Shown here one piece after another: positions 4,043 through 42,348 of a stretch of 64,000 bases of DNA. Below the pieces are notes generated by a model that was not told the origin of the DNA, searched no databases, and saw nothing but the letters and a program-made list of their open reading frames with translations. Source of the DNA: Escherichia coli (GTDB lineage Bacteria; Pseudomonadota; Gammaproteobacteria; Enterobacterales; Enterobacteriaceae); the NCBI RefSeq assembly GCF_003790525.1, contig NZ_CP033635.1. One strand, written 5' to 3'. Positions within the stretch are counted from its first letter, which is position 1; each line of letters starts with the position of its first letter. The position numbers and the translations under genes were made by a program.

Positions 4043-4061
4043 GAAAGCAGGTGAAGAAAGA

Positions 4062-5216: not shown

Positions 5217-5256
5217 ATTTAATATCACCTAAAGAGAATTTGGTTAGCTCAAACTG

Positions 5257-6002: not shown

Positions 6003-6010
6003 GGTTCGCT

Positions 6011-7987: not shown

Positions 7988-8004
7988 TTAAGATTATTCC
8001 GCTG

Positions 8005-8045
8005 GCGGGTCGATTTATTTACGTAAATCGGCCCGCTTTCTTTTT
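8005..8045 (+). terminator. speA intrinsic terminator
   Basis: Inverted repeat gcgggtcgattta/taaatcggcccgc followed by tttcttttt. Confidence 0.6.
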
Positions 8046-8132
8046 ATATATTCTTAAAAATAATTTAGCTGCTTTTCTTATTAAATAATCCCCCTACAAT
8101 CGCTGCATTAATTAAATGCAGAGGGAACGGTT

Positions 8133-8864: not shown

Positions 8865-8930
8865 CAACCTCGCTTGATGCCTCGTCCATTTAAGGCGATA
8901 ATTAGCGCAAACTTGTGTTTCGCAAATCCA

Positions 8931-8972
8931 ACCCTTCCTCGTCGGGCCTAACGACGCGGAAGGGTTTTTTTA
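8931..8972 (+). terminator. intrinsic terminator after lipoprotein ORF
   Basis: Hairpin cccttcc...ggaaggg followed by ttttttt. Confidence 0.6.
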
Positions 8973-8999
8973 TATCGACTTTGTAATAGGAGTCCATCC

Positions 9000-9920: not shown

Positions 9921-10070
9921 GTCATCTGCCTGGTTGAATTTTTTACACAGTCCCTTGTCTGGCACAAGGGACTTATCATTTAAAACCTATCCTGTTAATT
10001 AAGTCATCTTTACCCTGACTGCTGTTTTTTTAATGGATTGTTATTATCACGTTTTTAATGGAATAAATAG

Positions 10071-11633: not shown

Positions 11634-11680
11634 TGCCCCAAATGATTGAGCTTGTTTAATGACTGTGACCGGCTCTGAAT

Positions 11681-11712
11681 GAAAATTTCTCCGACATTCC
11701 TGTCGGAGAAAT
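11681..11712. terminator. bidirectional hairpin between convergent 520-aa ORF and loiP
   Basis: Inverted repeat ttctccgaca/tgtcggagaa with U-rich flank on minus strand. Confidence 0.5.
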
Positions 11713-11718
11713 ATGAAA

Positions 11719-12477
11719 TCACTTTATCCCATCCGCGCTCATACGATCGCGAATATGCTGGGCGCGTTCGGCGGATGCTGGATGGTCGTCAAACATTGAG
11801 CTTTGACGGCCTTCTTCCAGTTTTGCCAGTTTTTCAAAGCTGGTGGCAAGACCTGCCGGGCTGATGCCGCGTTGGCGCAGAAGATCGTAAGAATAATCAT
11901 CGGCTTCTGCTTCCTGGCGCTGGGAGAATTGCGAATTAACTAATTTCTCGCCCAGATCACCGAGTTGTGATTGAGATAAACTGCCGACAATCCCGCCCGC
12001 AGAGGCCGCAGCTACTCGTACGGCATTTGTACCAAGTGCCACCTGCATCCCTTTCTTCACATGGCCTAACGCTACGTGCCCCATCTCGTGACCGATCACC
12101 GCTTCGACTTCGTTATCTGTCATCATATCCATCAGCCCGCTATAGACGCGGATACAGCCGTTAGCCATTGCAAAGGCGTTCACATCCTTCGCCATATACA
12201 CTTTGTAATTCACCGGCTGACCGTTGATATTGTTGCCTAGCGCATTGGCAATAGTTGTCAGACGTTTAGCGTATTCGCTATTGGTTGGCGCAATCGTCGC
12301 CTTGCTGTCCATCTCCTGACATGCCTGATCGCTCAGGGTTTTCACCTGCGCATCACTCAAACTGTAAGCCTGAAAAGCTTCCGCTCCTGATGAGAGCAGT
12401 CCGTTGGAGTCCATATTCTGGCAACCGGTCAGTACCGTTGCCACGCTCATTGCTACCAATAAGGCGCGAATTTTCAT
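11719..12477 (-). CDS. loiP: outer-membrane M48 metalloprotease lipoprotein LoiP (YggG)
   Basis: ORF 11719..12696; internal start MKIRALLVAMSVATVLTGCQN (lipobox) and HEMGH zinc motif; 252 aa. Confidence 0.9.
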   Translation of the reverse strand: MKIRALLVAMSVATVLTGCQNMDSNGLLSSGAEAFQAYSLSDAQVKTLSDQACQEMDSKATIAPTNSEYAKRLTTIANALGNNINGQPVNYKVYMAKDVNAFAMANGCIRVYSGLMDMMTDNEVEAVIGHEMGHVALGHVKKGMQVALGTNAVRVAAASAGGIVGSLSQSQLGDLGEKLVNSQFSQRQEAEADDYSYDLLRQRGISPAGLATSFEKLAKLEEGRQSSMFDDHPASAERAQHIRDRMSADGIK

Positions 12478-14767: not shown

Positions 14768-14793
14768 AGGGCCGCGAAAGCGGCCCTTTTTTT
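14768..14793. terminator. tktA intrinsic terminator (bidirectional, abuts SPFH gene stop)
   Basis: gggccgc-gaaa-gcggccc followed by ttttttt. Confidence 0.7.
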
Positions 14794-15700
14794 ACTTAGT
14801 AGAGATAAACGGAACTGTGCTGCCGGGGATCATGGTATCGGGCAGTTTACCGTCCCAACGTTCGGCAGTGGTGAGGGCTACAAGTCCGGGATTATCCCGC
14901 AGAGCTTCACCGCGCAGGCGGATCGCTTCTGCTTCAGCCGCACTTTTTAAACGAATAGTTTCAGCCTCTGCCGCGCCTCTTACGCGAATAGTTTCCGCTT
15001 CTGCTTTAGCTGCCGCCAGTTTACTGTCTGCTTCTGCCTGGGCCTGAGTTACCGCTATTTGCGCCTGGATTTTCTCTGTTTCCAGATTTTGCTTACGCGT
15101 GGCAATGGCGACTTCTGCTTTCATTCGGTCTTCAATCGACTTTTCATAAGCGTCAGAAAAATCAATATTTTCAATCTGGACCCCGTCAATTACCACTGGC
15201 CCAACAACGGCTTTGCGCATGGCATTTTGCAGATCCTGAACCAGTTTTGTACGATCCTGTACAGCGCTGATGGCGGTATATTGGCCGAAAACGTTCTCCA
15301 GTTGAGTTGGCAACTGACGGACAATCAGACGATCTTTTAATGCTTCAATGGTGTTGTAGGTGGTATAAACCGCGCCTGCTTCTGAAGGTTTAATGTGGAA
15401 GCTGACTGATACTGTCATTTGTGCCGGTTGCTGGTCGCGGCTGTAGGCCTGTAATCCCTGATAGACCACAGCCTGATTACGCGTGGAAATTTTCTCCACG
15501 CTTTCCATAAACGGGATCTTAAAACCCAGACCCGGCTCGGCAACTTTTACGATTTTTCCGTAGCGCAGCAAAATGCCGCGTTCACCTTCATTAACGGTGT
15601 AATACGAGAGAAATGGCAGCACAACCACGGCAAGCACGCCAATGGCGATAGCAAGAGATTTTTGTGGGCGAAATGAGGTTAATGAAACAGGTGCTTTCAT
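14792..15700 (-). CDS. SPFH/band-7 (prohibitin/HflC-like) membrane protein with C-terminal coiled-coil repeats; not recalled in K-12 between tktA and cmtB
   Basis: N-terminal TM helix LAIAIGVLAVVVLPF, SPFH-like core, C-terminal AEAETIR(V/L)RG repeats and ERWDGKLP motif; SD aggaag upstream of ATG 15700. Confidence 0.7.
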   Translation of the reverse strand: MKAPVSLTSFRPQKSLAIAIGVLAVVVLPFLSYYTVNEGERGILLRYGKIVKVAEPGLGFKIPFMESVEKISTRNQAVVYQGLQAYSRDQQPAQMTVSVSFHIKPSEAGAVYTTYNTIEALKDRLIVRQLPTQLENVFGQYTAISAVQDRTKLVQDLQNAMRKAVVGPVVIDGVQIENIDFSDAYEKSIEDRMKAEVAIATRKQNLETEKIQAQIAVTQAQAEADSKLAAAKAEAETIRVRGAAEAETIRLKSAAEAEAIRLRGEALRDNPGLVALTTAERWDGKLPDTMIPGSTVPFISTK

Positions 15701-20722: not shown

Positions 20723-21432
20723 AAATTGAATTAACGGTGAATGGGCTGAAGATACAGGCACAGTACCAGAACGAAGAGATTGAAAATGTACATAAACCGT
20801 TGCTGCACATGTTGGCGGCCTTACAGACGGTAAATCCGCAGCGGCGTACGGTGGTTTTTCTTTGCGCTCCGCCGGGGACGGGTAAATCTACCCTAACCAC
20901 CTTCTGGGAATATATCGCGCAACAAGACCCGGAACTGCCCGCTATTCAGACGCTACCGATGGATGGTTTTCATCATTACAATAGCTGGCTGGATGCGCAT
21001 CAATTGCGCCCCTTCAAAGGCGCACCAGAGACATTTGACGTTGCGAAACTGGCGGAAAATCTGCGCCAGGTCGTGGAAGGGGATTGTACGTGGCCGCAGT
21101 ACGATCGACAAAAGCATGATCCTGTTGAAGATGCGTTGCACGTTACCGCACCACTCGTCATCGTCGAAGGAAACTGGTTGTTGCTGGACGACGAGAAGTG
21201 GCGCCAGCTTGCGCAATTTTGTGATTTCTCGATCTTTATCAAAGCTCCCGCATCTGCGTTGCGGGAGCGTCTGGTGGGGCGCAAGCTGGCGGGAGGGTTA
21301 TCGCTGGCAGACGCAGAAGCCTTTTATGACCGTACCGACGGGCCGAATGTTCGCCGGGTGCTGGAAGAGAGTCTGCCTGCAAATTTGACCTTAATGATGA
21401 CCGCTACGGGTGAATATCGTCTGATGGATTAA
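20719..21432 (+). CDS. yggC: P-loop kinase (uridine kinase/PRK-like)
   Basis: 237-aa ORF, GTG start overlapping yggD stop; Walker A APPGTGKST. Confidence 0.8.
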   Translation: MKIELTVNGLKIQAQYQNEEIENVHKPLLHMLAALQTVNPQRRTVVFLCAPPGTGKSTLTTFWEYIAQQDPELPAIQTLPMDGFHHYNSWLDAHQLRPFKGAPETFDVAKLAENLRQVVEGDCTWPQYDRQKHDPVEDALHVTAPLVIVEGNWLLLDDEKWRQLAQFCDFSIFIKAPASALRERLVGRKLAGGLSLADAEAFYDRTDGPNVRRVLEESLPANLTLMMTATGEYRLMD

Positions 21433-22081
21433 CGTTCCTGATTACACCATCTTCCAGTCGCACCACACGAGAGAAATGACGCCGGGTAAATGCGGCGTCA
21501 TGACTGATTGCTACGACGCTCGTGCCTCGCTGGCGGCACTTTTCCAGCCAACTTTCAAACACGCTCATCCAATTTTCGTCAAAATCCCGACTCGGCTCGT
21601 CCAGCAGCAATAGCGGCGGAGAGAGTGCTTCCAGGCAGGCGACGGCGACCATCCGTCGCTGCGCACTATGCAGATCCAGCGGATGCGCGCTGGCAGTGTC
21701 TGCTAACTGACAGCATTGCAGGGCAGCATTGGTACGTTGAGTGATTTCATCCGCCGGGCATTTTTGCAGTTTCAAACCAAATGCGATCTCGTCAGCGACG
21801 GTGCTGTGAAAAAGCTGGTTTTCCGCTTCCTGAAACAGTACGCCAATCTTTGCCGCGCGCTGGCGGTTTTTCAGGTTTTTCATCGCCTGTTGTTGCAGCA
21901 TAACCGTACCGGCTGTGGGCGTAAGAAGACCTGCCATTACTCGTAACAGCGTCGATTTTCCCGCGCCATTGTCGCCGGTCAGCGCCAACCATTCACCTTG
22001 TTTGAGTTGCAGAGAAATGTCGCAAAGACAATCCGTTGCCGCGTCAGGCCAGCGATAAGTTATCTGATTTAACGTTAACAT
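21404..22081 (-). CDS. ABC-type ATPase, ECF-transporter energizing subunit with degenerate signature motif (EcfA'-like)
   Basis: Walker A GDNGAGKST, Walker B LLLLDEPSRDFD, H-loop ISHD, but signature region reads LHSAQRR instead of LSGGQ; ATG 22081 overlaps upstream ATPase stop (ATGTTAA). Confidence 0.75.
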   Translation of the reverse strand: MLTLNQITYRWPDAATDCLCDISLQLKQGEWLALTGDNGAGKSTLLRVMAGLLTPTAGTVMLQQQAMKNLKNRQRAAKIGVLFQEAENQLFHSTVADEIAFGLKLQKCPADEITQRTNAALQCCQLADTASAHPLDLHSAQRRMVAVACLEALSPPLLLLDEPSRDFDENWMSVFESWLEKCRQRGTSVVAISHDAAFTRRHFSRVVRLEDGVIRNVNPSDDIHP

Positions 22082-22752
22082 AGTGGCTGGAGCGCTCCGT
22101 TTTGCAATTGCCACGCTTGCTGGCAGTAGTTCAGGAAAGGTGTACGATGACGTTCAAAAAGAATAATCAGCGAACCACGTTCAAGCGCCCAGTGTTGTAA
22201 GCGCTGCAACAGCATTTCGCAGGCCTGCGGCGTCAGGCGGCTAAAGGCTTCATCAAGAATTAAGAGCTTTGGCTGCATCGCGATGGCGCAGGCGATGACC
22301 ACACGCTGTGTCTCTCCACCGGAGAGTGTTGCCGGGTGACGATGGCGCAACGGCTGGCACTCGGTCAGAGTCAGGGCGGCATCAATCCGCGCCATAATCT
22401 CCTCTTCAGCAAGACACAGATTTTCTGGCCCAAAGGCAACTTTTTCTTCCACGCTAAAGGTACAGCCGGAGAGCTGCAAATAGGGCGATTGCTGAACGAG
22501 CTGGATGGTGGCGGATTGTTCATTAAGCGGGATATGCCCAATGGGCGTACCGAGAAGCGTCCCCGTGCCGGTTATCTCTCCTGGCAGAAAGTCCGGATAC
22601 CAGCCCGCCATCAGCTGTGCCAGCGTACTTTTGCCACTGCCGTTGTCACCAAAGATGGCGACCATCCCCGGTTTGACATAGTGAAAGTCATAACAGAACG
22701 GAGGATGCGTTGAGTGTGTCGGGCAATAGCGAAACTGTTCTAACGTAACCAT
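22075..22752 (-). CDS. ABC-type ATPase, ECF-transporter energizing subunit (EcfA-like)
   Basis: Walker A GDNGSGKST, canonical signature LSGGETQR, Walker B LLILDEA; start could be 22758 or 22752. Confidence 0.75.
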   Translation of the reverse strand: MVTLEQFRYCPTHSTHPPFCYDFHYVKPGMVAIFGDNGSGKSTLAQLMAGWYPDFLPGEITGTGTLLGTPIGHIPLNEQSATIQLVQQSPYLQLSGCTFSVEEKVAFGPENLCLAEEEIMARIDAALTLTECQPLRHRHPATLSGGETQRVVIACAIAMQPKLLILDEAFSRLTPQACEMLLQRLQHWALERGSLIILFERHRTPFLNYCQQAWQLQNGALQPLC

Positions 22753-23447
22753 ATCCACGCTCCGAATTCAGCCAGCATTAGCAAGATCATGGCGTAACGT
22801 GCTACGCGTTGTAGGGTGCTATCGGCTGGTGCCCATAACGTAGTGCGCCTATTGTTGATTCGAAATGCCCGCATATCCAGCGCCGCACCACGGACAGCCA
22901 GATCGTTAAGCGCATTGTGTGTTAGCGGAATAATTAGCGCGGGCATCGCGCGTAAACGCTGATACCAGCCTTCATCAAGCGGCACGCCGCGGGCGCGCTG
23001 CGCTTCATGAATAATCGCTAATTGCCGTTTTAACTGCTCAACGACCAACAACGGCCCGGCGAACAGATAAGCGACGCCCGGCGGCAGGCGAGAAGCAAAC
23101 AAAGCGCGGATAAAACGTTGCACTGGGACGTACTGCATCCACAACTGCGAGGTTGAAACAATCGCCAGAATCCGCAACCAGAGCGTAATAGCATGCGTCC
23201 ACCGTTCTGGCGAGCGTGGCGTGCCGCTTAGCCATTCTATCAGCCAGCCACCGTGTACCAGCCACAGTCCAGCCCCCAGCGAGAACATCAGCCAGACGAC
23301 ATATTTTGCCCGCCGCCGCGTGGCCTTTAGCGCAATAAGGCAGAAAAAGGTCGCCGCGCTATAGACTGGCAATATTGTCTGTGTGGGCAGGATAAGCGTG
23401 GTGTAGGCCGCCAGCGCCCACAGCGTTAATGAGGTAAACGGATGCAT
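22740..23447 (-). CDS. ECF transporter transmembrane T component (CbiQ/EcfT-like)
   Basis: Polytopic 235-aa protein with Ala-Arg-Gly-type coupling motifs (EAQRARGV; LAVRGAALD); ATG directly follows stop of upstream gene. Confidence 0.65.
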   Translation of the reverse strand: MHPFTSLTLWALAAYTTLILPTQTILPVYSAATFFCLIALKATRRRAKYVVWLMFSLGAGLWLVHGGWLIEWLSGTPRSPERWTHAITLWLRILAIVSTSQLWMQYVPVQRFIRALFASRLPPGVAYLFAGPLLVVEQLKRQLAIIHEAQRARGVPLDEGWYQRLRAMPALIIPLTHNALNDLAVRGAALDMRAFRINNRRTTLWAPADSTLQRVARYAMILLMLAEFGAWIWLR

Positions 23448-24026
23448 TTAGCGCACGGCTGCCATTGCCGGAAAATGGCGCGTGGTGCGAATCGGCAGCT
23501 GACGCAGTAAAAGCCAGACAATCACCGCTGTAAGAATTTTATCGACCAGGTTTGCGCCTATCACCGTAATCGCCACCGACTCCACCAGGTTTTGCCCCAT
23601 AGAGTGCATCCAGGCAACGAACAAATCGGCTCCGCTACCGGTGACACCGCCGAACAGCGCAGTACGCAGCGGTACAGCGACGACCGTTACCGCAAGCGTA
23701 ATAATCACGCCGCTGACAACGACTTTTGGCAGGGTGCGGAACCAACCCGCTCGCGCCAGCCAACCGGCGACCAGGCCGATGACCATCGCCACGGGCGCAA
23801 ATGCGGCGGCGATCGGGTCGGTCAGCAATCCCCAGAGTAAATTGGTCAGTAAGCCGGTCAGCATCCCGATCACCGGACCAAGCAGTACCGCGCTAATAAG
23901 TGTGCCGACGGAGTCGAGAAATATAGGTAATTTGACCATGCTGGCCAGTTGCCCGCCGATCATATTGATGGCGATAGATATAACGATCAACACCAGCGCC
24001 TGACTGGAAAAGTGGCGACGCGCCAT
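23448..24026 (-). CDS. small integral membrane protein, putative ECF substrate-capture S component
   Basis: About 190 aa, 5-6 predicted TM helices, sits first in transporter gene order; start chosen at MARRHFSSQ (ORF extends to 24125). Confidence 0.55.
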   Translation of the reverse strand: MARRHFSSQALVLIVISIAINMIGGQLASMVKLPIFLDSVGTLISAVLLGPVIGMLTGLLTNLLWGLLTDPIAAAFAPVAMVIGLVAGWLARAGWFRTLPKVVVSGVIITLAVTVVAVPLRTALFGGVTGSGADLFVAWMHSMGQNLVESVAITVIGANLVDKILTAVIVWLLLRQLPIRTTRHFPAMAAVR

Positions 24027-24048
24027 AAGAAAACCTCTCTGAAAATAG

Positions 24049-24480
24049 TTAGTTAACGGGGGAAATATGCAACTCGTCGTAACCAGAAAGCGCGCAAGGC
24101 TGGCGGCTAAACGCCAGTTCCTCAAGGCAGCCGATCACCAGTTCAAGCGTGGTCCGCACGGTACAGCCGGGCATCATATGACCGCCAAGCATCGTGCCGT
24201 GTGGATCGGAAACGCAGAGATGAAGATGTTCACCACTCTGTTCCAGCGTGCCGTTCAATGCGATGACTTCGAACTTACCGCTTAGTAGGGCAGTGTTTTC
24301 TTGCCCGGCATAGCGTAAGGCGACGTCAGTCAGACTGCCGGTACAACCTGCAATCCACGCGGCGTGAAGTTGTTGTTGCTGCGCGAAGGCGCGTAATTGG
24401 GAGAGAACTTCCTGCCCGGGGAGCAGGCGCAGCGCGTAAAAACGTGCGGAGGAAGAATATGGGTAGGGCAATGTCATCAT
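24049..24480 (-). CDS. DUF296/PPC-domain-like protein (143 aa) of unknown function, first gene of the cluster
   Basis: 143-aa ORF; family assignment from recollection of PPC-domain proteins, not verified. Confidence 0.5.
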   Translation of the reverse strand: MMTLPYPYSSSARFYALRLLPGQEVLSQLRAFAQQQQLHAAWIAGCTGSLTDVALRYAGQENTALLSGKFEVIALNGTLEQSGEHLHLCVSDPHGTMLGGHMMPGCTVRTTLELVIGCLEELAFSRQPCALSGYDELHISPVN

Positions 24481-28567: not shown

Positions 28568-29428
<861 letters not shown>

Positions 29429-29436
29429 TCAACGCT

Positions 29437-29476
29437 GAGGCCAGATAATACTCTCTGGCCTCTCTCTTATTAGTTT
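29437..29476 (+). terminator. mscS intrinsic terminator
   Basis: gaggccaga...tctggcctc hairpin followed by T-rich tract. Confidence 0.5.
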
Positions 29477-29566
29477 TTCTGATTGCCAATTAATATTATC
29501 AATTTCCGCTAATAACAATCCCGCGATATAGTCTCTGCATCAGATACTTAATTCGGAATATCCAAC

Positions 29567-30202
29567 GTGTTTTCTTATTACTTTCAAGGTCTTGCGCTTG
29601 GCGCAGCTATGATCCTACCGCTCGGTCCACAAAATGCTTTTGTGATGAATCAGGGCATTCGTCGTCAGTACCACATTATGATTGCCTTACTTTGCGCTAT
29701 CAGCGATTTGGTCCTGATTTGCGCCGGGATTTTTGGTGGCAGCGCGTTATTGATGCAGTCGCCGTGGTTGCTGGCGCTGGTCACCTGGGGCGGCGTAGCC
29801 TTCTTGCTGTGGTATGGTTTTGGCGCTTTTAAAACAGCGATGAGCAGCAATATTGAGTTAGCCAGTGCCGAAGTCCTGAAGCAAGGCAGATGGAAAATTA
29901 TCGCCACCATGCTGGCAGTGACCTGGCTGAATCCGCATGTTTACCTGGATACTTTTGTTGTACTGGGCAGCCTTGGCGGGCAACTTGATGTGGAACCAAA
30001 ACGTTGGTTTGCGCTCGGGACAATTAGCGCCTCTTTCCTGTGGTTCTTTGGTCTGGCTCTTCTCGCAGCCTGGCTGGCACCGCGCCTGCGCACGGCAAAA
30101 TCACAACGCATTATCAATCTGGTAGTGGGATGTGTTATGTGGTTTATTGCCTTGCAGCTGGCGAGAGACGGTATTGCTCATGCACAAGCCTTGTTCAGTT
30201 AG
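29567..30202 (+). CDS. argO: arginine exporter (LysE family)
   Basis: 211-aa ORF, GTG start, [30 protein letters not shown] matches ArgO. Confidence 0.9.
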
Positions 30203-30294
30203 GCGCTATCTGATGGAAAAATAAAACAGAGGCGCTAAGCTTGCCTCCAGAGGTCCTGAATTTTAGGCAAGTCAATTAACACGGAGAGACTAAC

Positions 30295-31035
30295 GTGAAG
30301 TTCAAAGTTATCGCCCTGGCGGCATTAATGGGTATTAGCGGGATGGCAGCGCAGGCTAACGAATTGCCGGATGGACCGCATATTGTCACCTCCGGTACGG
30401 CAAGCGTGGATGCGGTGCCAGACATTGCCACTCTTGCGATTGAAGTCAACGTGGCCGCGAAGGATGCCGCTACTGCCAAGAAACAGGCGGATGAGCGCGT
30501 CGCACAATACATTTCCTTCCTTGAACTCAATCAGATCGCGAAAAAAGATATCAGCTCAGCGAACTTACGCACCCAGCCAGATTATGATTATCAGGATGGT
30601 AAAAGTATCCTGAAAGGCTACCGTGCTGTGAGAACGGTGGAAGTCACGCTCCGTCAGTTAGACAAACTGAATTCCTTGCTGGATGGCGCGCTGAAGGCGG
30701 GTCTTAACGAAATTCGTTCTGTGTCGCTGGGCGTGGCGCAGCCGGATGCCTATAAAGACAAAGCGCGTAAGGCAGCGATTGATAACGCGATTCATCAGGC
30801 GCAGGAACTGGCGAACGGCTTTCATCGTAAACTGGGGCCGGTATATAGCGTGCGCTACCATGTTTCCAACTATCAGCCCAGCCCAATGGTGCGGATGATG
30901 AAAGCCGATGCCGCGCCGGTGTCCGCCCAGGAAACTTACGAGCAGGCCGCTATTCAGTTTGATGATCAGGTCGATGTGGTCTTCCAGTTAGAACCTGTGG
31001 ATCAACAACCCGCTAAAACACCTGCAGCACAATAA
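30295..31035 (+). CDS. yggE: periplasmic oxidative-stress defense protein (DUF541/SIMPL)
   Basis: 246-aa ORF with signal peptide MKFKVIALAALMGISGMAAQA; matches YggE. Confidence 0.85.
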   Translation: MKFKVIALAALMGISGMAAQANELPDGPHIVTSGTASVDAVPDIATLAIEVNVAAKDAATAKKQADERVAQYISFLELNQIAKKDISSANLRTQPDYDYQDGKSILKGYRAVRTVEVTLRQLDKLNSLLDGALKAGLNEIRSVSLGVAQPDAYKDKARKAAIDNAIHQAQELANGFHRKLGPVYSVRYHVSNYQPSPMVRMMKADAAPVSAQETYEQAAIQFDDQVDVVFQLEPVDQQPAKTPAAQ

Positions 31036-31202
31036 TATTTGTAGCCCGACGTATTCGTCGGGCTAATGCCTTTACCCGATATTGCCTCCTTTTTCTGTAA
31101 TTTTCTGTAAAACCATGACGTAATCACCTATCTTTGCTCGCGGTTTCATCAAGGATAGGCTGACTGAAACGGTTAAGCGGACAAGGATGCGGGGGAGGGG
31201 GT

Positions 31203-32099
31203 ATGGACATTTTTATTTCGAAAAAGATGCGCAATTTCATTTTATTAGCGCAAACCAATAATATTGCCCGGGCGGCAGAAAAAATCCATATGACGGCTTC
31301 GCCATTTGGTAAAAGCATTGCCGCGCTGGAAGAACAAATTGGCTATACGCTATTTACCCGCAAAGATAATAATATCAGCCTCAATAAAGCCGGACAGGAA
31401 CTGTATCAAAAACTGTTCCCGGTTTATCAACGACTTTCTGCGATTGATAATGAAATCCATAACTCAGGGCGTCGTTCACGAGAAATTGTGATTGGCATAG
31501 ATAATACTTATCCGACAATTATTTTCGATCAGTTGATTAGTCTCGGAGATAAGTATGAAGGCGTGACCGCCCAGCCAGTTGAGTTCAGCGAAAACGGCGT
31601 TATCGATAATCTTTTTGACCGTCAGTTAGATTTTATAATCTCCCCACAGCATGTGTCTGCACGAGTTCAGGAACTGGAAAACCTGACTATCAGTGAACTA
31701 CCGCCGCTGCGATTGGGCTTTCTCGTTTCTCGTCGTTATGAAGAGCGACAAGAGCAAGAGCTGCTTCAGGAGCTACCCTGGCTACAAATGCGCTTTCAGA
31801 ACCGGGCTAACTTCGAAGCAATGATTGATGCGAATATGCGTCCTTGTGGGATCAATCCCACCATTATTTATCGTCCCTACAGTTTTATGGCCAAAATCAG
31901 CGCCGTGGAGCGCGGACATTTTCTGACGGTGATCCCGCATTTTGCCTGGCGACTGGTGAATCCGGCAACGCTGAAATATTTTGATGCGCCGCACAGGCCG
32001 ATGTATATGCAGGAATATCTTTATTCAATCAGAAATCATCGTTATACCGCCACGATGCTTCAGCATATTGCTGAAGATCGTGACGGGACGAGTCATTAA
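31203..32099 (+). CDS. ygfI: LysR-family transcriptional regulator
   Basis: 298-aa ORF with N-terminal HTH; stop shares 4 nt with convergent scpC. Confidence 0.8.
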   Translation: MDIFISKKMRNFILLAQTNNIARAAEKIHMTASPFGKSIAALEEQIGYTLFTRKDNNISLNKAGQELYQKLFPVYQRLSAIDNEIHNSGRRSREIVIGIDNTYPTIIFDQLISLGDKYEGVTAQPVEFSENGVIDNLFDRQLDFIISPQHVSARVQELENLTISELPPLRLGFLVSRRYEERQEQELLQELPWLQMRFQNRANFEAMIDANMRPCGINPTIIYRPYSFMAKISAVERGHFLTVIPHFAWRLVNPATLKYFDAPHRPMYMQEYLYSIRNHRYTATMLQHIAEDRDGTSH

Positions 32100-33574
32100 C
32101 CCAGCATCGAGCCGGTTGCAATTAAATTACGGTGTAAATCAAAGACGTGGCTAAGATCGTGGTGAATATGTCCGCCGGGCGCATTTTCCAGATAGCGATG
32201 CAGATAATCCCGATACATAGGATGTGCACAATTATCAATGATGGTGCGGGCGCGTTGAAGCGGGGAAAGACCACGCAGATCGGCGATCCCTTGTTCGGTG
32301 ATGATCACTTTGACGCTGTGTTCGCTGTGATCAACATGGCTGCACATTGGCACGACGGTTGAGATCTTGCCTTCTTTAGCAATCGACGGGGCCATAAAGA
32401 TCGACAGATACGCGTTGCGTTCAAAATCACCGCTGCCACCGATGCCGTTCATCAGATCGACCCCGGCTACGTGCGTTGAGTTGGCATGCCCGTAAATATC
32501 AAACTCCAGGCCGACGTTCAGAGCGATGACGCCCAGACGACGGATGATTTCCGGGTTATTGGAAATTTCCTGCGGACGCAACACAATGCGGCTGGCAAAG
32601 TAATCCATATTGTCGTAAATCTTGCGCAGGGAATCGGCCGAGATAGTCAGGCTGGAGGCGCTGGCCCCGCTGATTTTGCCCGTTTCCAGTAAATGCACCA
32701 CCGATTCCTGTAGCACTTCCGAATACATCATGAACGGAGGAATTTCCGGGTTTTCCCCTAGTCGCGCCATGACTGCATTATTGATATTGCCCACGCCACT
32801 TTGCAGCGGCAGAAATTCCGGCGGAATACGCCCATGCGCCATTTCCTGCAACAAGAACGTGACCACGTTATCGGCAATCTGCTGGCACATGGGATTTTGC
32901 TTATCCAGCATATTACCGGCGTCAGGCAAGTTGGTTTCCACGACGGCGACAATCTTTTTCGGATCGATTTGCACATAGCGGGTACCGACGCGATCCATTG
33001 CATGGAAGATCGACACGCTATTGCGCCGCGGTGGCGCGCCAGGAATCACAATATCTGCCAGTTCTGCAACGCGCGGATCGTGATAGTGATTAAGTTCAAT
33101 GATCACTTTCTTCGCTCGCAGCAGCCAGGTCGGCGCATTACCGTTCCCGCTGGTTAACCAGACTCGACCATCCGGTGCCAGTGCCGATGCTTCAATGACG
33201 GCAACATCAATGTCGCCGAAGAAACCGTAATTGACCATTTGCGCCACTTCGCTCAAATGCAGGTCAACGAAACTCACCGCGCCCTGATTGATCTTTTTAC
33301 GTAAACCGGACGATGTTTGATATGGCGCACGCCAGGAAACAGCATCGGCGTCAGAAAGTACATCGTCAGCGGCGGCGCTGATTGACGCCCCCGTCAGCAG
33401 GCGAATTTGATACGGCTTTTTGGCCTCATGCTGTTCGTTAGCTCTGCGGGCAATCGCGGTGGGTAAGGCTTTCGGCGAACCCGCTGGGGTAAAGCCGCTA
33501 AATGCCACCATGTCGTTATGCTGGATAATTTCTGCCGCTTCATCGGCGGTCATCCTTGTCCACTGAGTTTCCAT
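32096..33574 (-). CDS. scpC: propionyl-CoA:succinate CoA transferase
   Basis: 492-aa ORF METQWTRMTADEAAEIIQHNDMVAFSGFT... matches ScpC (YgfH). Confidence 0.9.
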   Translation of the reverse strand: METQWTRMTADEAAEIIQHNDMVAFSGFTPAGSPKALPTAIARRANEQHEAKKPYQIRLLTGASISAAADDVLSDADAVSWRAPYQTSSGLRKKINQGAVSFVDLHLSEVAQMVNYGFFGDIDVAVIEASALAPDGRVWLTSGNGNAPTWLLRAKKVIIELNHYHDPRVAELADIVIPGAPPRRNSVSIFHAMDRVGTRYVQIDPKKIVAVVETNLPDAGNMLDKQNPMCQQIADNVVTFLLQEMAHGRIPPEFLPLQSGVGNINNAVMARLGENPEIPPFMMYSEVLQESVVHLLETGKISGASASSLTISADSLRKIYDNMDYFASRIVLRPQEISNNPEIIRRLGVIALNVGLEFDIYGHANSTHVAGVDLMNGIGGSGDFERNAYLSIFMAPSIAKEGKISTVVPMCSHVDHSEHSVKVIITEQGIADLRGLSPLQRARTIIDNCAHPMYRDYLHRYLENAPGGHIHHDLSHVFDLHRNLIATGSMLG

Positions 33575-33597
33575 TTTAACTCCTTCGTTCGCAGGGA

Positions 33598-34383
33598 TTA
33601 ATGACCAACGAAATTAGGTTTACGTTTTTCGAGGAAAGCGTTCATCCCTTCCTGGTAATCTTCACTGTCATAAACCGCGCGGCGCATCCCCTGAATACGT
33701 TCAAATTCATCGGAGTTCATGGTGTGCGCTTCGCCCAGTACACGCAGCTCTTCTTTGATAACGGCAATGGCTAACGGTGCTTTCTCAGAGATGTGGTGCG
33801 CCATTTGTAAGGTGAAATCTTCCAGTTCTTCCACTTCCACAACATGGTTGAGGATGCCGACAGCCAGCGCGCGCTGGGCGGTGATTGGCGAAGCGGTAAA
33901 AATCAGCTCTTTGACAATGTGGAAGCCCGCGTCGCGGGTCAGATTGTGAATGCCGACCAGGTTATACGGGACACCGAGGTTTACAGGTGTCATTGAGAAG
34001 GTTGAGGTACTGGCGGCGATAATCAGATCGGAACTCATGATCATTTCAAATGCGCCACCCCAAACACTACCTTCCACCATCGAAATGATCGGTTTCGGGA
34101 ATTTTTGGATCATGCGGGTGATTTGACGCAACGGATCATCATAGGAGAGCGGATCGCGACCGCCAGACGGCAGTTCGTGAATATCGTGACCTGCGGAGAA
34201 GACTTTGGATCCACTCGGCGCGCGCAAAATGATACAGCGAATTTCCGGCCGGTTGAGATCGCTTAATGCCTGCATAAGATCATCAATAAAGACTTTACTT
34301 AAGGCATTAAGTTTGCGGCCATAGTTAAACTCAATGACCGCCACTTTGTTGATAGTGACAACGTTCACATACTGATAAGACAT
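33598..34383 (-). CDS. scpB: methylmalonyl-CoA decarboxylase (crotonase fold)
   Basis: ORF 33598..34425; MSYQYVNVVTINKVAVIEFNYGRKLNAL matches ScpB (YgfG). Confidence 0.9.
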   Translation of the reverse strand: MSYQYVNVVTINKVAVIEFNYGRKLNALSKVFIDDLMQALSDLNRPEIRCIILRAPSGSKVFSAGHDIHELPSGGRDPLSYDDPLRQITRMIQKFPKPIISMVEGSVWGGAFEMIMSSDLIIAASTSTFSMTPVNLGVPYNLVGIHNLTRDAGFHIVKELIFTASPITAQRALAVGILNHVVEVEELEDFTLQMAHHISEKAPLAIAVIKEELRVLGEAHTMNSDEFERIQGMRRAVYDSEDYQEGMNAFLEKRKPNFVGH

Positions 34384-34393
34384 AAAAATTCCT

Positions 34394-35389
34394 TTAATCA
34401 AAATATTGCGTCTGGATAAATTCACTGAGCTGTCGCAGGCCGGTGCGCGGTGAGAGCGTATTGTTTTTGACCGCTAAAAGCGTCTGGCGGTAATAGCGAT
34501 CGAAATCTTCATTCGCGAACAGGTGATTCAGTACTTCTTCTTCGGTTTGTTTACGCAGCCATTCCACCGATTGTTGTTGCCGCACTTGTTGTAATCGACC
34601 ACTGGCAGTTAGCGCGGTTTTGAAGTCGATGATGGCGTGCCAGATCTCATCGATTCCACGTTTTTCCAGTGCGCTACAAGTCAGAACCCGTGGCTGCCAT
34701 TCGTCGTATTTACGTCGCAGAATATGCAGGGCACTCTCGTACATATGCTGGGCAATGGCGACATTGGTATGGTTATCGCCATCGTCTTTGTTGATAACGA
34801 TCAGATCTGCCACTTCCATCAGCCCCTTTTTAATGCCCTGCAGATCATCGCCGCCACCGGCAATTTGCAACGAGATAAAACAGTCCACCATGCGGGCGAC
34901 TTCCGTTTCCGACTGTCCGACGCCAACCGTTTCGACAATCACTACGTCATAACCCGCCGCTTCGCATAACAGCATTAATTCCCGCGCTCGCTGACTGGCA
35001 CCGCCCAGATGGCCGGAGGAGGGTACCGGGCGAATAAACGCCGCCTCGGCACGCGCAAGGTCATTCATGCGGGTTTTATCCCCGAGAATGCTACCGCCAG
35101 TGACCGGGCTGCTGGGATCGACCGCAATAACCGCAACCTTTAATCCCTCACGAATCAACAACATGCCAAAGGCTTCAAGAAAGGTACTTTTCCCCGCGCC
35201 GGGTGTGCCGGTAACACCCAGTCGCAGGGCGTTACCACAGAACGGCATAATGGCATCAAGCAGTTGCGTACTTAGCGCCTGATGACGCGGGTGACGGCTT
35301 TCCACCAGCGTCATGGCCTGGGCGAGCGTGGCACGCTCACCCTGACGTAAGCGGCGAATACTTTCTGCCAGCGTGGCTTCATTAATCAT
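34394..35389 (-). CDS. argK: MeaB-like GTPase/methylmalonyl-CoA mutase accessory protein
   Basis: 331-aa ORF with P-loop GTPGAGKST; matches ArgK (YgfD). Confidence 0.9.
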
Positions 35390-37526
35390 GATGCTGGCTT
35401 ATCAGATTCAGTACGTCGCGCACGCTGTCGAGCATAGGCGTACCTGGACCATAAATCGCCGCCACGCCGCGCTCCTGCAGGAAGGCGTAATCCTGCGGCG
35501 GAATGACGCCACCCGCGACCACGCAGATATCTTCGCGTCCCCATTTTTTCAGCGCTTCGACCAGTTCCGGGATCAGCGTTTTATGACCGGCAGCCAGTGA
35601 AGATGCGCCCACTACGTGAACGTCGTTTTCTACTGCCAGGCGGGCGATCTCTTCAGGTGTAGAGAACATCGGGCTTAAATCTACGTCGAAACCGAGATCG
35701 GAATAGGCGCTGGCGATCACTTTCGCGCCGCGATCGTGCCCATCCTGGCCCATTTTGGCGATCAGAATGCGCGGACGACGACCATTGTCGGCAAGGAACT
35801 GCTCCGTTTGCGCAACAATGGCATCGAACTCGGTGGCCGATTTCTCAGACTGATGATAGCTTTGCGCAATCACGCCGGTAACACACTGGCTTGGCACCAG
35901 ATAACGGTCGAAAGCGGCTTCCAGCGCATCGGAAATTTCACCCAGGGTGGCGCGAACGCGAGCGGCATTAACAGCGGCAGCCAGCAGGTTTTCGTTATGC
36001 TGTGCGGCGTGAGTCAGGGCGTTCAACGTGGCGGTTACGGCAGCATCATCACGGGTGGCGCGAATGCGTTCCAGTGAAGCAATCTGCTCGTTACGCACCA
36101 TCACGTTGTCGATCTCAAGTACATCGGTTTCGTCTTCGTGATCCAGTTTGTACTTGTTGACACCAACGATGACACGCTTGCCCTGGTCGATCAGCGACTG
36201 TTCGCGCGCGGAGGCCTCTTCGATCATTCGTTTTGGCAGACCTGCTTCGATCGCTTTCGCCATGCCACCGGCTTCGTCGATCTGTTGGATAATGGCTCTG
36301 GCTTGTTTGACGATTTGATCGGTCAGCGATTCAACGTAATAGGATCCGGCCAGTGGATCGACGGTGCGGCAGAGTTCTGATTCTTCCTGAATGATGATCT
36401 GGGTATTGCGGGCAATGCGTGCTGAGAAATCGGTAGGCAAACCAAGCGCTTCATCAAAGGCGTTGGTATGCAGTGACTGAGTACCGCCCAGCGTTGCAGC
36501 CAGTGCTTCAATGGTGGTGCGGATAACGTTGTTATATGGATCCTGTTCAGTCAGGCTCCAGCCTGAGGTCTGGCAGTGGGTACGCAGCGCCAGTGATTTC
36601 GGATCCTGTGCGCCAAATCCACTGACCGCTTCGCTCCATAAATAACGTGCCGCACGCAACATGGCGACGTTCATAAACAGATCCATGCCAATGCCGAAGA
36701 AGAACGACAGGCGAGGAGCGAAGTCATCAATTTTCAGCCCGGCGGAGATTGCTGCTTTGATGTACTCAATCCCATCAGCGAGCGTAAATGCTACCTGTTG
36801 CACGCAGTTGGCACCCGCTTCACCCATATGGTAACCGCTGATACTGATGGTATTAAATCGCGGCATGTTGCCGGAACACCAGGCGATGATGTCTGCGATA
36901 ATACGCATTGACGGTTTTGGCGGGTAAATATAGGTGTTGCGGCAAAGATACTCTTTGAGGATATCGTTTTGAATGGTGCCGGTCAGTTTATCGGGTGTAA
37001 CACCTTGCTCTTCTGCGGCGACAATATAAAACGCCAGTACTGGTAGTACTGCGCCATTCATGGTCATCGAAACCGACATTTTATCCAGCGGGATCTGGTC
37101 GAACAGGACTTTCATATCTTCCACGGTGTCGATAGCAACGCCCGCTTTGCCGACGTCGCCCGCCACGCGCGGGTTATCGGAGTCGTAGCCTCGGTGGGTG
37201 GCAAGGTCAAACGCAACGGAAAGACCTTTTTGCCCGGCGGCCAGGTTACGGCGATAAAAAGCGTTGGACTCTTTTGCTGTTGAAAAACCAGCATACTGAC
37301 GGATGGTCCACGGTTGGGCGGTATACATAGTGGCACGCGGGCCACGAACGTAGGGGGGCAAACCAGGAAGGGTACCTGTCACCTCCAGATTATCGAGATC
37401 GGCTTCGGTATACAGCGGCTTGATGGCGATCCCTTCCGCGGTTTGCTGAACCAGCGAGTCGACAGTTTTCTCCCGACGGCTCAATTCCTTGTTGGCAAGC
37501 TGTTGCCACTCCTGCACGTTAGACAT
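35382..37526 (-). CDS. scpA: methylmalonyl-CoA mutase (B12-dependent)
   Basis: ORF 35382..37547; [39 protein letters not shown] matches Sbm/ScpA. Confidence 0.92.
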
Positions 37527-37729
37527 TATTTGCTCCGTAAAACGCAATCAAAATGAGGGTATTTGCGCTTACGGTGAGCTTTTTACGTGGGTTTGTCGCC
37601 AGCAAAAAAAATGCATTCAGACGTCGTTTTTTGCCGCCTGAGATTTGTCTATTTTGTGATGTGATTCAAGGAATACAAAAAGAAGTGAGGATAACGCCTG
37701 ATATGTGCTATCAGGCATTATTTGATGGA

Positions 37730-38623
37730 TTAATCCTGACGAAGGACTTTGTGACCATAATCGAGCAACGCATCAGTGACTTTACGCATCATGCGGCTTT
37801 CAGGAGCAAAGCGGTGCCAGTAGAGCATCCGGCGTTGAAATAGCCCCGGCGTTAAGTCAATCAGTTCACCGCTGGCCAGTTCTTTCTCGATTTGCAGGTG
37901 CGGGATCATACAGCAGGTGGTGCCCTGGCGAGCAAGTTGTACGAACGCTTCTGAAGAATTAACGATATGGCACGGTACGCTGCCTGGGGGCAGATCGAAG
38001 TTTTGCTGCAAAAAGGCCTGGTGCATATCGTCAAGATGGTCAAAGGCGACCACAGGTGCTTTCAATAATGCCGAACGCGTTACGCCGTTAGGGAAATATT
38101 TTTCGGCAAACGGTTTTGAGCTGACGAACAGATAGTCAAGCGCACCGAGCTTATCGACAAGGCAACTCGGCAGCGCCTGATGTTGAATACTCACCGCGCC
38201 GACCACTTCGCCGCGGCGCAGACGTTCCTGAGTGCGGGTTTCATCTTCTACCTGCAAGTTGAGGCGGATAGGCGAATCAGCCAACACAGGAGCCAGCGCC
38301 GGAAGCAACCACGTCGCCAGACTGTCGGCGTTGACCGCCAGTGAAAGCAGCAGCGGAGTCGAACCGGTTTGTTCATCGCCCAGCCACTCTTCTTCCAGCA
38401 ACTCCACCTGGCGTAGCAGTGCCAGCAGTTTTTGCCCTTGTTCTGTCGGGCGCGGCGGTACGGTACGCACCAACAGCGGCTGCCCGAACATATTTTCCAG
38501 TTGCTTAATGCGCTGTGAGACGGCTGATTGTGTAATGCACAGCTTTTGTGCCGCGCGCTCAAATCCTCGTTCACGTATCACCGCATCCAGTGCCTGTAAT
38601 GTTCTGTAGTCCGGGCGTTTCAT
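37730..38623 (-). CDS. argP: LysR-family regulator ArgP (IciA)
   Basis: ORF 37730..38689; [43 protein letters not shown] matches ArgP. Confidence 0.92.
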
Positions 38624-39005
38624 TGCTGTTGTCTGCTCCTGGTAAATGCTTTTTCCTGCACTATGACACAATTTTGTGTCAGGTTGCATATACCGAAGCC
38701 GTCGGCGGGTAACATTTGTATCAATGGTTAAACGCGCAGCTTAAAAGATCAGGGATTTGCGCTATTGCATTTCGCTTAGCGACTTCGCGCCCTGGTTATG
38801 TTGAATGGCGTGGCGTTATTGCCTCTGTTCGCACCGTGGAGCGGCATACCCAGACCGTTGTATGCTTTATTTGCCGGGCGAAAGGGGATGCCCGCCATTG
38901 CGCGATATTTTATGGATGAGTTAACCACGCGGCTTGCCAACGGGGTCTGAATCGCTTTTTTTGTATATAATGCGTGTGAAATTTCATACCACAGGCGAAA
39001 CGATC

Positions 39006-39665
39006 ATGACCCAGGATGAATTGAAAAAAGCAGTAGGATGGGCGGCACTTCAGTATGTTCAGCCCGGCACCATTGTTGGTGTAGGTACAGGTTCCACCGC
39101 CGCACACTTTATTGACGCGCTCGGTACAATGAAAGGCCAGATTGAAGGGGCCGTTTCCAGTTCAGATGCTTCCACTGAAAAACTGAAAAGCCTCGGCATT
39201 CACGTTTTTGATCTCAACGAAGTCGACAGCCTTGGCATCTACGTTGATGGCGCAGATGAAATCAACGGCCACATGCAAATGATCAAAGGCGGCGGTGCGG
39301 CGCTGACCCGTGAAAAAATCATTGCTTCGGTTGCGGAAAAATTTATCTGTATTGCAGACGCTTCTAAGCAGGTTGATATTCTGGGCAAATTCCCGCTGCC
39401 AGTAGAAGTTATCCCGATGGCACGTAGTGCAGTGGCGCGCCAGCTGGTGAAACTGGGCGGTCGTCCGGAATACCGTCAGGGCGTGGTGACCGATAACGGC
39501 AACGTGATCCTCGACGTCCACGGCATGGAAATCCTTGACCCGATAGCGATGGAAAACGCCATAAATGCGATTCCTGGCGTGGTGACTGTTGGCTTGTTTG
39601 CTAACCGTGGCGCGGACGTTGCGCTGATTGGCACACCTGACGGTGTCAAAACCATTGTGAAATGA
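39006..39665 (+). CDS. rpiA: ribose-5-phosphate isomerase A
   Basis: ORF 38934..39665; [39 protein letters not shown] matches RpiA. Confidence 0.95.
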
Positions 39666-39920
39666 TCTGACGGGGGAACCTCCCCCGTTAAAAAAATTCT
39701 CTTCATTAAATTTGGTGACATGTGTCACGTTTTTACCTGGCTATTGTCGATTGCTCTAAATAAACCCTCTAAACCAGCATATTCATCCAAGAAATACCTT
39801 TGCGTGATATTTCCTCAACATCGCGACGCAAACGTTCATATTGCCGCAATATTATTTTTTGATATGTTGAAAGGCGGATGCAAATCCGCACACAACATTT
39901 CAAAAGACAGGATTGGGTAA

Positions 39921-41153
39921 ATGGCAAAGGTATCGCTGGAGAAAGACAAGATTAAGTTTCTGCTGGTAGAAGGCGTGCACCAAAAGGCGCTTGAAAGCCT
40001 TCGTGCAGCGGGTTACACCAACATCGAATTTCACAAAGGCGCGCTGGATGATGAACAATTAAAAGAATCCATCCGCGATGCCCACTTCATCGGCCTGCGA
40101 TCCCGTACCCATCTGACTGAAGACGTGATCAACGCCGCAGAAAAACTGGTCGCTATTGGCTGTTTCTGTATCGGAACAAACCAGGTTGATCTGGATGCGG
40201 CGGCAAAACGCGGTATCCCGGTATTTAACGCACCGTTCTCAAATACGCGCTCTGTTGCGGAGCTGGTGATTGGCGAACTGCTGCTGCTATTGCGCGGCGT
40301 GCCGGAAGCCAATGCTAAAGCGCACCGTGGCGTGTGGAACAAACTGGCGGCGGGTTCTTTTGAAGCGCGCGGCAAAAAGCTGGGTATCATCGGCTATGGT
40401 CATATTGGTACTCAATTGGGCATTCTGGCTGAATCGCTGGGAATGTATGTTTACTTTTATGATATTGAAAACAAACTGCCGCTGGGCAACGCCACTCAGG
40501 TACAGCATCTTTCTGACCTGCTGAATATGAGCGATGTGGTGAGTCTGCATGTACCAGAGAATCCGTCCACCAAAAATATGATGAGTGCGAAAGAGATTTC
40601 ACTGATGAAGCCCGGCTCGCTGCTGATTAATGCTTCGCGCGGTACTGTGGTGGATATTCCGGCGCTGTGTGACGCGCTGGCGAGCAAACATCTGGCGGGG
40701 GCGGCAATCGACGTATTCCCGACGGAACCGGCAACCAATAGCGATCCATTTACCTCTCCGCTGTGTGAATTCGACAACGTCCTTCTGACGCCACACATTG
40801 GCGGTTCGACTCAGGAAGCGCAGGAGAATATCGGCCTGGAAGTTGCGGGTAAATTGATCAAGTATTCTGACAATGGCTCAACGCTCTCTGCGGTGAACTT
40901 CCCGGAAGTCTCGCTGCCACTGCACGGTGGGCGTCGTCTGATGCACATCCACGAAAACCGTCCGGGCGTGCTAACTGCGCTCAACAAAATTTTTGCCGAG
41001 CAGGGCGTCAACATCGCCGCGCAATATCTGCAAACTTCCGCCCAGATGGGTTATGTAGTTATTGATATTGAAGCCGACGAAGACGTTGCCGAAAAAGCTC
41101 TGCAGGCAATGAAAGCTATTCCGGGTACCATTCGCGCCCGTCTGCTGTACTAA
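39921..41153 (+). CDS. serA: D-3-phosphoglycerate dehydrogenase
   Basis: 410-aa ORF MAKVSLEKDKIKFLLVEGVHQKALESLRAAGYTNIEFH matches SerA. Confidence 0.95.
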   Translation: MAKVSLEKDKIKFLLVEGVHQKALESLRAAGYTNIEFHKGALDDEQLKESIRDAHFIGLRSRTHLTEDVINAAEKLVAIGCFCIGTNQVDLDAAAKRGIPVFNAPFSNTRSVAELVIGELLLLLRGVPEANAKAHRGVWNKLAAGSFEARGKKLGIIGYGHIGTQLGILAESLGMYVYFYDIENKLPLGNATQVQHLSDLLNMSDVVSLHVPENPSTKNMMSAKEISLMKPGSLLINASRGTVVDIPALCDALASKHLAGAAIDVFPTEPATNSDPFTSPLCEFDNVLLTPHIGGSTQEAQENIGLEVAGKLIKYSDNGSTLSAVNFPEVSLPLHGGRRLMHIHENRPGVLTALNKIFAEQGVNIAAQYLQTSAQMGYVVIDIEADEDVAEKALQAMKAIPGTIRARLLY

Positions 41154-42162: not shown

Positions 42163-42348
42163 AGGGAATCTCCGAGATGCCGCCGCAGGCTGTAACCCTT
42201 GAACCCTTGGTTCAAGGTGAATGTGTCGTCGCAGTTTTAAGGCTTCTCGGACGGACCGAGCATGCTCACCAACCGCGGAGCGCCACATTCTTGTGGTATG
42301 AAATATCGGCTCAGGGGACTGGCCCGCTTGCGAACATCTCAGAGAAAT
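42163..42348 (-). ncRNA. ssrS: 6S RNA
   Basis: Minus strand reads AUUUCUCUGAGAUGUUCGCAAGCGGGCCAGUCCCCUGAGCCGAUAUUUCAUACCACAAGAAUGUGGCGCUCCGCGG...GGAGAUUCCCU, matching remembered 6S RNA; directly upstream of fau. Confidence 0.9.

Follow-up and report, generated by a model that had tools for sequence, protein, structure and literature searches.

The stretch of Escherichia coli DNA between argP and srsR raises two questions: whether it holds an intact methylmalonyl-CoA operon, and whether intact genes here amount to a complete route from succinate to propionate. In the window, i.e. the whole stretch of 64,000 nucleotides that was analyzed (contig NZ_CP033635.1 of assembly GCF_003790525.1), the ORF listing gave four consecutive minus-strand ORFs at this site (35382–37547, 34394–35389, 33598–34425, and 32096–33574), corresponding to the following genes:

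scpA (sbm), 35382..37526, minus strand: adenosylcobalamin-dependent methylmalonyl-CoA mutase, 714 aa

argK (ygfD/meaB), 34394..35389, minus strand: G3E-family GTPase chaperone of the mutase, 331 aa

scpB (ygfG), 33598..34383, minus strand: biotin-independent methylmalonyl-CoA decarboxylase with a crotonase fold, 261 aa

scpC (ygfH), 32096..33574, minus strand: propionyl-CoA:succinate CoA-transferase, 492 aa

The sequence-only reading had placed four intact sbm genes at 32096–37526, and these positions match the scpC stop and the scpA start exactly, giving an operon of 5431 nt from the stop codon of scpC to the ATG of scpA, on the minus strand, which that reading had left unstated. The scpA ORF itself extends to 37547, and the annotated ATG at 37526 yields the 714-residue protein. 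For scpB, a longer ORF with a GTG start (34425) would run 32 nt into argK. It was rejected because the NF008506 profile begins only at its residue 15, and the K-12 and CM2 annotations take the ATG at 34383. The junctions had all been described as overlapping. This holds for scpA/argK, where the overlap is 8 nt (ATGATTAA), but not for argK/scpB and scpB/scpC, which are separated by spacers of 10 and 23 nt, respectively, each with a Shine-Dalgarno-like AGGA or AAGGAG. The 8-nt overlap suggests that the mutase and its chaperone may be translationally coupled.

Global alignment of window positions 32096–37800 (reverse complement) with K-12 MG1655 gave 5592 identities, 113 mismatches, and no gaps (98%), so that frameshifts, which would have refuted the earlier reading, could be ruled out. 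The results showed that the four genes have the same lengths as in K-12 (714, 331, 261, and 492 aa), with ATG starts, TAA stops, and no internal stops, and that the two operons differ by 11 amino acid substitutions in total (five in ScpA, three in ArgK, none in ScpB, and three in ScpC). The co-oriented gene order is collinear with b2917–b2920 of K-12 (NC_000913.3); junction geometry and flanks (argP upstream and convergent srsR downstream) are also shared, and the synteny serA-rpiA-argP-(operon)-srsR-yggE-argO-mscS-fbaA is conserved. The stop of scpC overlaps that of srsR (31203–32099, plus strand) by 3 nt (32097–32099). All four proteins scored above the curated cut-off of their own specific NCBIfam model. 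From these sequence comparisons, we conclude that the locus is almost certainly the chromosomal sbm operon of E. coli (scpA-argK-scpB-scpC, K-12 b2917–b2920), intact and at its usual site between argP and srsR (ygfI). No evidence contradicts this identification, and the operon is already known and well described; the K-12 sbm operon is reportedly the ‘sleeping beauty mutase’ operon that Haller et al. are said to have described in 2000.

By megablast, the operon DNA was 100% identical over 5431 nt in several complete E. coli chromosomes, and the full-length matches listed carry the RefSeq labels scpA, meaB, scpB, and scpC. The operon of strain CM2 (NZ_CP158308.1) was likewise 100% identical over 5431 nt, and six other complete genomes share this match. 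CM2 matched window positions 11729–64000 at 99.93% with no gaps, whereas its identity to positions 1–9921 was only 98.5%, and it lacks approximately 1.75 kb between speB and loiP, having 56 bases where the window has 1807 (9922–11728). This extra piece of the window encodes a DUF1266 protein.

ScpA scored 1251.6 bits against NCBIfam NF006944 (cut-off 876), and the profile search showed a substrate barrel at the N-terminus followed by a B12 domain at the C-terminus, with TIGR00641 covering residues 28–547 and TIGR00640 residues 583–713. The B12-binding DxHxxG motif reads DGHDRG (residues 595–600) and lies within the C-terminal B12 domain; the histidine of this motif is the lower axial ligand of cobalamin. 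Compared with K-12 b2917, scpA displayed 97.95% nucleotide identity, five amino acid differences, no indels, and a dN/dS of 0.039. Given the literature and the five residues that separate it from the characterized K-12 enzyme, ScpA is predicted to interconvert succinyl-CoA and (R)-methylmalonyl-CoA using adenosylcobalamin.

ArgK scored 495 bits against NF006958 (cut-off 329) and carries a P-loop (Walker A) GTPGAGKS at residues 61–68 and an NKxD motif, NKDD, at residues 200–203. It differs from K-12 ArgK by three amino acids, with a dN/dS of 0.040. Its full-length match was PDB 2p67 (E=9.5e-218), deposited as ‘LAO/AO transport system kinase’, and the MeaB and MMAA structures came next. The old name, which survives in PMC3850637, implies an arginine/LAO transport kinase; this role was dropped because the NCBIfam equivalog and the structures of MeaB and MMAA point to a MeaB-type GTPase.

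ScpB is identical to the K-12 protein (no amino acid differences, dN/dS 0); it scored 486.9 bits against the equivalog NF008506 (cut-off 257) and matched PDB 1ef8, a methylmalonyl CoA decarboxylase, over residues 1–261 (E=1.4e-172). ScpC scored 751.7 bits against TIGR03458 (cut-off 658.7), with a dN/dS of 0.036 relative to K-12. In the alignment with AarC (structure 4eu3), its catalytic Glu286 (YSEV) falls on the YSEV glutamate, and its GxGGxxD motif reads GIGGSGD (residues 377–383).

The solved structures nearest to ScpA are methylmalonyl-CoA mutases from human and Propionibacterium (E about 1e-270 or better), and ArgK is homologous to MeaB/MMAA (E about 1e-78 to 1e-90); ScpA and ArgK also share the cofactor and nucleotide motifs of these counterparts. 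The E. coli locus encodes the mutase as a single polypeptide, without a small-subunit (mutA-type) gene, whereas the Propionibacterium shermanii and Mycobacterium mutase structures consist of separate alpha and beta chains. Moreover, in E. coli the partners of the mutase are a decarboxylase and a CoA-transferase, not a transcarboxylase and an epimerase (PMC5512728).

The mechanism has been established for the K-12 proteins, and we infer it here because of the near-identity of the two sets. Adenosylcobalamin-loaded ScpA would convert succinyl-CoA to methylmalonyl-CoA, while the ArgK/MeaB GTPase would bind the mutase and, by homology to MeaB and MMAA, either protect it or gate cofactor loading. 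ScpB would then decarboxylate methylmalonyl-CoA to propionyl-CoA, and ScpC would pass the CoA of propionyl-CoA on to another succinate, releasing propionate and regenerating succinyl-CoA, so that the net reaction would be succinate to propionate and CO2. The earlier description of the pathway as cryptic and in need of exogenous B12 agrees with PMC3850637 and PMC5391575, the B12 dependence being a matter of literature and not readable from the window. According to these studies, the operon is hardly expressed and added cyanocobalamin is required for product; external cobalamin is needed because E. coli has no de novo B12 synthesis.

The region upstream of the operon and its plus strand contained the following features:

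argP-scpA intergenic region, 37527..37729, minus strand: 203 nt, sequence read directly

Shadow ORFs, 32622-32978, 32801-33157, 34620-34952, 34637-34969, 35736-36077, and 37553-37843, plus strand: no Pfam family

The intergenic region contains the Shine-Dalgarno sequence of scpA (GGAG), and folding revealed a stable hairpin directly after the argP stop (about 37691–37721; −17.5 kcal/mol, z = −6.3). A sigma-70 consensus scan of 31900–38000 found no promoter-like site on the minus strand, including upstream of scpA, in agreement with PMC3850637, where the promoter is said to be weak or inactive. An Rfam search of the window matched only 6S RNA and SibC, several kb away; neither a cobalamin riboswitch nor any other Rfam family was found close to the operon. 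SrsR (YgfI) was considered as a regulator of the adjacent operon and set aside, as the SrsR paper makes no mention of scpA, scpC, sbm, or methylmalonyl. The plus-strand ORFs (96–118 aa) in or just upstream of the operon, having no Pfam family, were rejected as antisense shadow ORFs.

The locus had also been read as the succinate-to-propionate pathway. All four genes are present, but the completeness of the pathway is disputed in the literature, as a gene for methylmalonyl-CoA epimerase is missing. In PMC5512728, Gonzalez-Garcia et al. (2017) regarded the native operon as an incomplete pathway, and they reported that in minimal medium the operon alone yielded propionate from glucose only after addition of the epimerase. 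The closed succinate-to-propionate cycle may be incomplete in vivo. It is conceivable, though we lean against it, that the real role of the operon is not this cycle but the handling of propionyl-CoA/methylmalonyl-CoA from amino-acid or odd-chain catabolism, or a flow towards succinyl-CoA. Such a role is proposed because no epimerase joins the (R) product of ScpA to a presumed (S)-specific ScpB, and none is annotated among the CM2 genes corresponding to the window. Consistent with it, expressing the operon increased the breakdown of amino acids to propionate and made isoleucine degradation possible (PMC5512728), and its metabolic context has been called ambiguous (PMC3850637). However, in the part of Haller et al. 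2000 that is reported in PMC5512728, ScpA and ScpB were coupled in vitro from succinyl-CoA to propionyl-CoA, and several engineering studies (including PMC3850637 and PMC5391575) obtained propionate or 1-propanol from the operon with B12.

A further alternative concerns the last step of the proposed cycle. Three amino acids distinguish ScpC from its K-12 counterpart (residues 11, 144, and 277); D11 and E277 are the same in six other E. coli strains compared, with K-12 as the outlier. The substitution I144N is rare and private to this sub-lineage, at a position that is conserved as hydrophobic. It could destabilize or inactivate the CoA-transferase, so that the last step would be impaired despite the open frames, but we regard this as quite unlikely. 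Residue 144 is Ile in K-12, ST648, EC0026B, GN04592, APEC O78, ATCC 8739, and O157:H7, Asn being found only in the window among the strains compared, and it is Val in the PDB homologues 2nvv, 2g39, and 4eu3; a hydrophobic-to-polar change at a conserved position would be a classic destabilizing change. On the other hand, residue 144 lies outside the catalytic motifs examined (Glu286 and GxGGxxD), and in the seven complete genomes that match best, which originate from chicken, pig, dog, and human, the N144-encoding DNA was identical or one base off, so that the allele is being maintained in a lineage in circulation. I144N could mark the beginning of a change in function, and an intact scpC frame that carries it does not guarantee full activity.

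We also asked how the intact sbm operon identified here compares with its state in the species. Relative to K-12, dS of the four genes was about 0.07–0.10, and their dN/dS of 0–0.04 resembles that of the neighbors argP and srsR; as judged from these ratios, the operon genes are under purifying selection. Of 5426 complete E. coli genomes, 5425 gave a megablast match to the operon, and in 1152 of the 5425 (about 21%) less than 80% of it was covered. Nissle and ST131 were among the sampled genomes below 80%, and the sampled rows keep 11–22%. Nissle has an internal deletion of approximately 4.3 kb that left pseudogene remnants of scpA and scpC. These sampled genomes may point to phylogroup B2.

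That the operon is an evolutionary relic being lost, intact here by chance and without fitness contribution, is very improbable: it is silent in laboratory conditions (PMC3850637, PMC5391575) and is incompletely covered in about a fifth of the genomes, but its low dN/dS (0.039, 0.040, 0, and 0.036) is in the same regime as that of argP and srsR, all eight E. coli strains compared have full-length frames without stops, and 79% of complete genomes keep at least 80% of it. Another reading of the intact sbm operon, which we consider rather unlikely, is that it forms a presence/absence polymorphism: about 79% of complete genomes would carry it intact and under purifying selection, and the remaining fifth only as remnants. 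No paper on such a polymorphism was found in the literature searched, but a pan-genome table would probably show it.

This is a textbook operon, annotated in thousands of genomes and employed by metabolic engineers to produce propionate, 1-propanol, and PHBV, and its intactness here mainly serves annotation: the window holds the intact form, not the deleted form of Nissle and ST131. Only three points are mildly useful, (i) the strong purifying selection on a ‘silent’ operon, (ii) the common deletion allele, and (iii) the private ScpC I144N. If the polymorphism is true, it would mean that selection favors the ‘cryptic’ pathway in certain niches, for example a B12- and succinate-rich gut, and that it is dispensable in others.

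We listed the ORFs of window positions 29000–41000 and found four consecutive minus-strand ORFs in the operon region, an orientation absent from the sequence-only reading. The boundaries of the region 32096–37526 coincide precisely with the final base of the scpC stop codon and the initial base of the scpA start codon.

35382–37547, minus strand: scpA ORF, annotated ATG at 37526, 714 aa
34394–35389, minus strand: argK (meaB, ygfD), 331 aa
33598–34425, minus strand: scpB (ygfG) ORF, annotated ATG at 34383, 261 aa
32096–33574, minus strand: scpC (ygfH), 492 aa

When window positions 32096–37800 (reverse complement) were globally aligned with K-12, the result was 5592 identities, 113 mismatches, and 0 gaps, with a per-gene nucleotide identity of 97.5–98.4%. 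K-12 MG1655 displays the same arrangement, with b2917–b2920 located between argP and srsR (ygfI). The lengths, ATG starts, and TAA stops of the four genes were identical to those of K-12, and no internal stops were found in any of them in the gene-by-gene comparison; the products differ from those of K-12 by five (ScpA), three (ArgK), zero (ScpB), and three (ScpC) residues. Since the alignment is gapless, the lengths, starts, and stops agree, and internal stops are missing, no frameshift interrupts the operon, and the claim that all four sbm genes are intact is confirmed. A megablast search of all complete RefSeq E. coli assemblies matched the 5431-nt stretch in 5425 of 5426 genomes. The best matches, strain CM2 (NZ_CP158308.1) and others, were 100% identical over its full length and are labeled scpA, meaB, scpB, and scpC in RefSeq, with srsR overlapping the end. 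The first reading of the operon is thereby supported, and the sbm operon is here an already known, ordinary feature.

Direct reading of the sequence showed an 8-nt overlap between scpA and argK (ATGATTAA), whereas a 10-nt spacer containing AGGA lies between argK and scpB, and a 23-nt spacer containing AAGGAG between scpB and scpC. Thus, of the three internal junctions, just one overlaps as described in the sequence-only reading. The scpC stop codon and that of the convergent srsR overlap inside a common TTAA. A longer GTG-started scpB ORF, which would overlap argK, was rejected, as the family profile starts only at residue 15 of this ORF and the ATG at 34383 is the start used in the annotations of both references (K-12 and CM2). 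In E. coli O157:H7 PV15-279, the annotation gives the neighboring regulator gene srsR as a pseudogene interrupted by an internal stop, and the scp operon is intact.

The spacer between argP and scpA is 203 nt long and carries a GGAG Shine–Dalgarno sequence before the scpA ATG. Directly after the argP stop there is a 13-bp hairpin (approximately 37691–37721, minus strand; −17.5 kcal/mol, z = −6.3) without a clear U-tract, which plausibly represents the 3′ end of the argP transcript or an insulator ahead of scpA. A sigma-70 consensus scan found no minus-strand promoter-like site in 31900–38000, no Rfam families, including cobalamin riboswitches, were found near the operon, and the plus-strand ORFs within or just upstream of it had no Pfam match. 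In the whole window, only two Rfam matches exceeded the gathering score:

42165–42348, minus strand: 6S RNA (ssrS), 139.8 bits
41366–41516, minus strand: SibC antitoxin RNA, over the ibsC toxin gene, 136.5 bits

All four proteins scored above the curated cut-offs of the NCBIfam models specific to them.

Family assignment of the operon proteins (score; cut-off, in bits)
ScpA: NF006944, methylmalonyl-CoA mutase (1251.6; 876)
ArgK: NF006958, MeaB GTPase (495; 329)
ScpB: NF008506, methylmalonyl-CoA decarboxylase (486.9; 257)
ScpC: TIGR03458, succinate CoA-transferase YgfH subfamily (751.7; 658.7)

All expected motifs checked in ScpA, ArgK, and ScpC were found: the cobalamin-binding DxHxxG of ScpA as DGHDRG (residues 595–600), the P-loop GTPGAGKS (61–68) and NKDD (200–203) of ArgK, and GIGGSGD (377–383) of ScpC, whose Glu286 (in YSEV) aligned to the glutamate of the YSEV in AarC (structure 4eu3). 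Among solved structures, ScpA matched the human and Propionibacterium methylmalonyl-CoA mutases (E ~1e-270 or better), and ArgK aligned along its entire length with PDB 2p67, with MeaB and MMAA as the next matches. ScpB, which has the same sequence as its K-12 counterpart, matched 1ef8 across residues 1–261.

ScpC alleles were compared in eight strains, including the window. At D11 and E277, the window agrees with the other six E. coli strains, K-12 being the outlier at both. Codon 144 (33143–33145, minus strand) encodes Asn in the window alone and Ile in the other seven strains; the residue is Val in three solved homologues. The seven complete genomes that match best, isolated from several hosts, show at most a one-base difference in the stretch of DNA that includes this codon. 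On this comparison, N144 is a non-conservative substitution private to the sub-lineage of the window.

The pathway is established for the K-12 proteins and, given their near-identity, very probably also applies to those of the window. ScpA with adenosylcobalamin would convert succinyl-CoA to methylmalonyl-CoA, ScpB would decarboxylate this to propionyl-CoA, and ScpC would move the CoA to a new succinate, releasing propionate. For ArgK/YgfD, an association with the mutase has been described (PMC5391575 and papers cited there). The proposed need for exogenous B12 finds support in the literature, as product forms only with added cyanocobalamin, since E. coli does not synthesize this compound and has no requirement for it (PMC3850637). 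The succinate-to-propionate assignment is likewise supported but lacked a caveat: Gonzalez-Garcia et al. found that the operon alone yielded propionate from glucose in minimal medium only when a methylmalonyl-CoA epimerase was supplied, and concluded that the pathway encoded by the native operon is incomplete (PMC5512728). Among the CM2 genes corresponding to the window, none is annotated as an epimerase.

Outside the operon, window 11729–64000 is collinear with CM2 (99.93% identity, gapless), and 1–9921 is only 98.5% identical. Between speB and loiP, the window contains approximately 1.75 kb (9922–11728) that CM2 does not have, with one RefSeq-annotated ORF:

10071–11633, plus strand: DUF1266 domain-containing protein, 520 aa

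Because the switch in identity to CM2 falls at this insertion, a recombination boundary is suggested there. Of the 5425 complete E. coli genomes, only 210 covered at least 80% of a query spanning the insertion. Mapping from the CM2 annotation placed a PPC-domain DNA-binding protein and a four-gene ECF-type transporter cluster next to epd (~21404–24480, minus strand), and a prohibitin-family gene between cmtB and tkt (~14792–15700, minus strand); neither locus is known from K-12. Mapped in the same way, the annotation of prfB (~61027–62125, plus strand) includes the well-known programmed +1 frameshift of this gene.

Only 4273 of the 5425 complete genomes covered at least 80% of the operon stretch. 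In rows sampled from the remaining 1152 (~21%), which include Nissle (NZ_CP148105.1) and O25b:H4-ST131, 11–22% of the stretch was left. Unlike the window, which carries the intact form, Nissle has an internal deletion of approximately 4.3 kb in the compared region (window ~32250–36600), with window ~32250–36507 missing. What is left of scpA there, about 0.9 kb of its 5′ part that has lost a further small piece, is fused near the final ~150 nt of scpC, and the annotation lists the two remnants as pseudogenes. Our literature search found no paper on this deletion allele. Relative to K-12, the dN/dS values were 0.039 (scpA), 0.040 (argK), 0 (scpB), and 0.036 (scpC), at a dS of approximately 0.07–0.10, and were indistinguishable from those of the neighbors argP and srsR. 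Therefore, the ‘cryptic’ operon is kept by purifying selection in the lineages that retain it.
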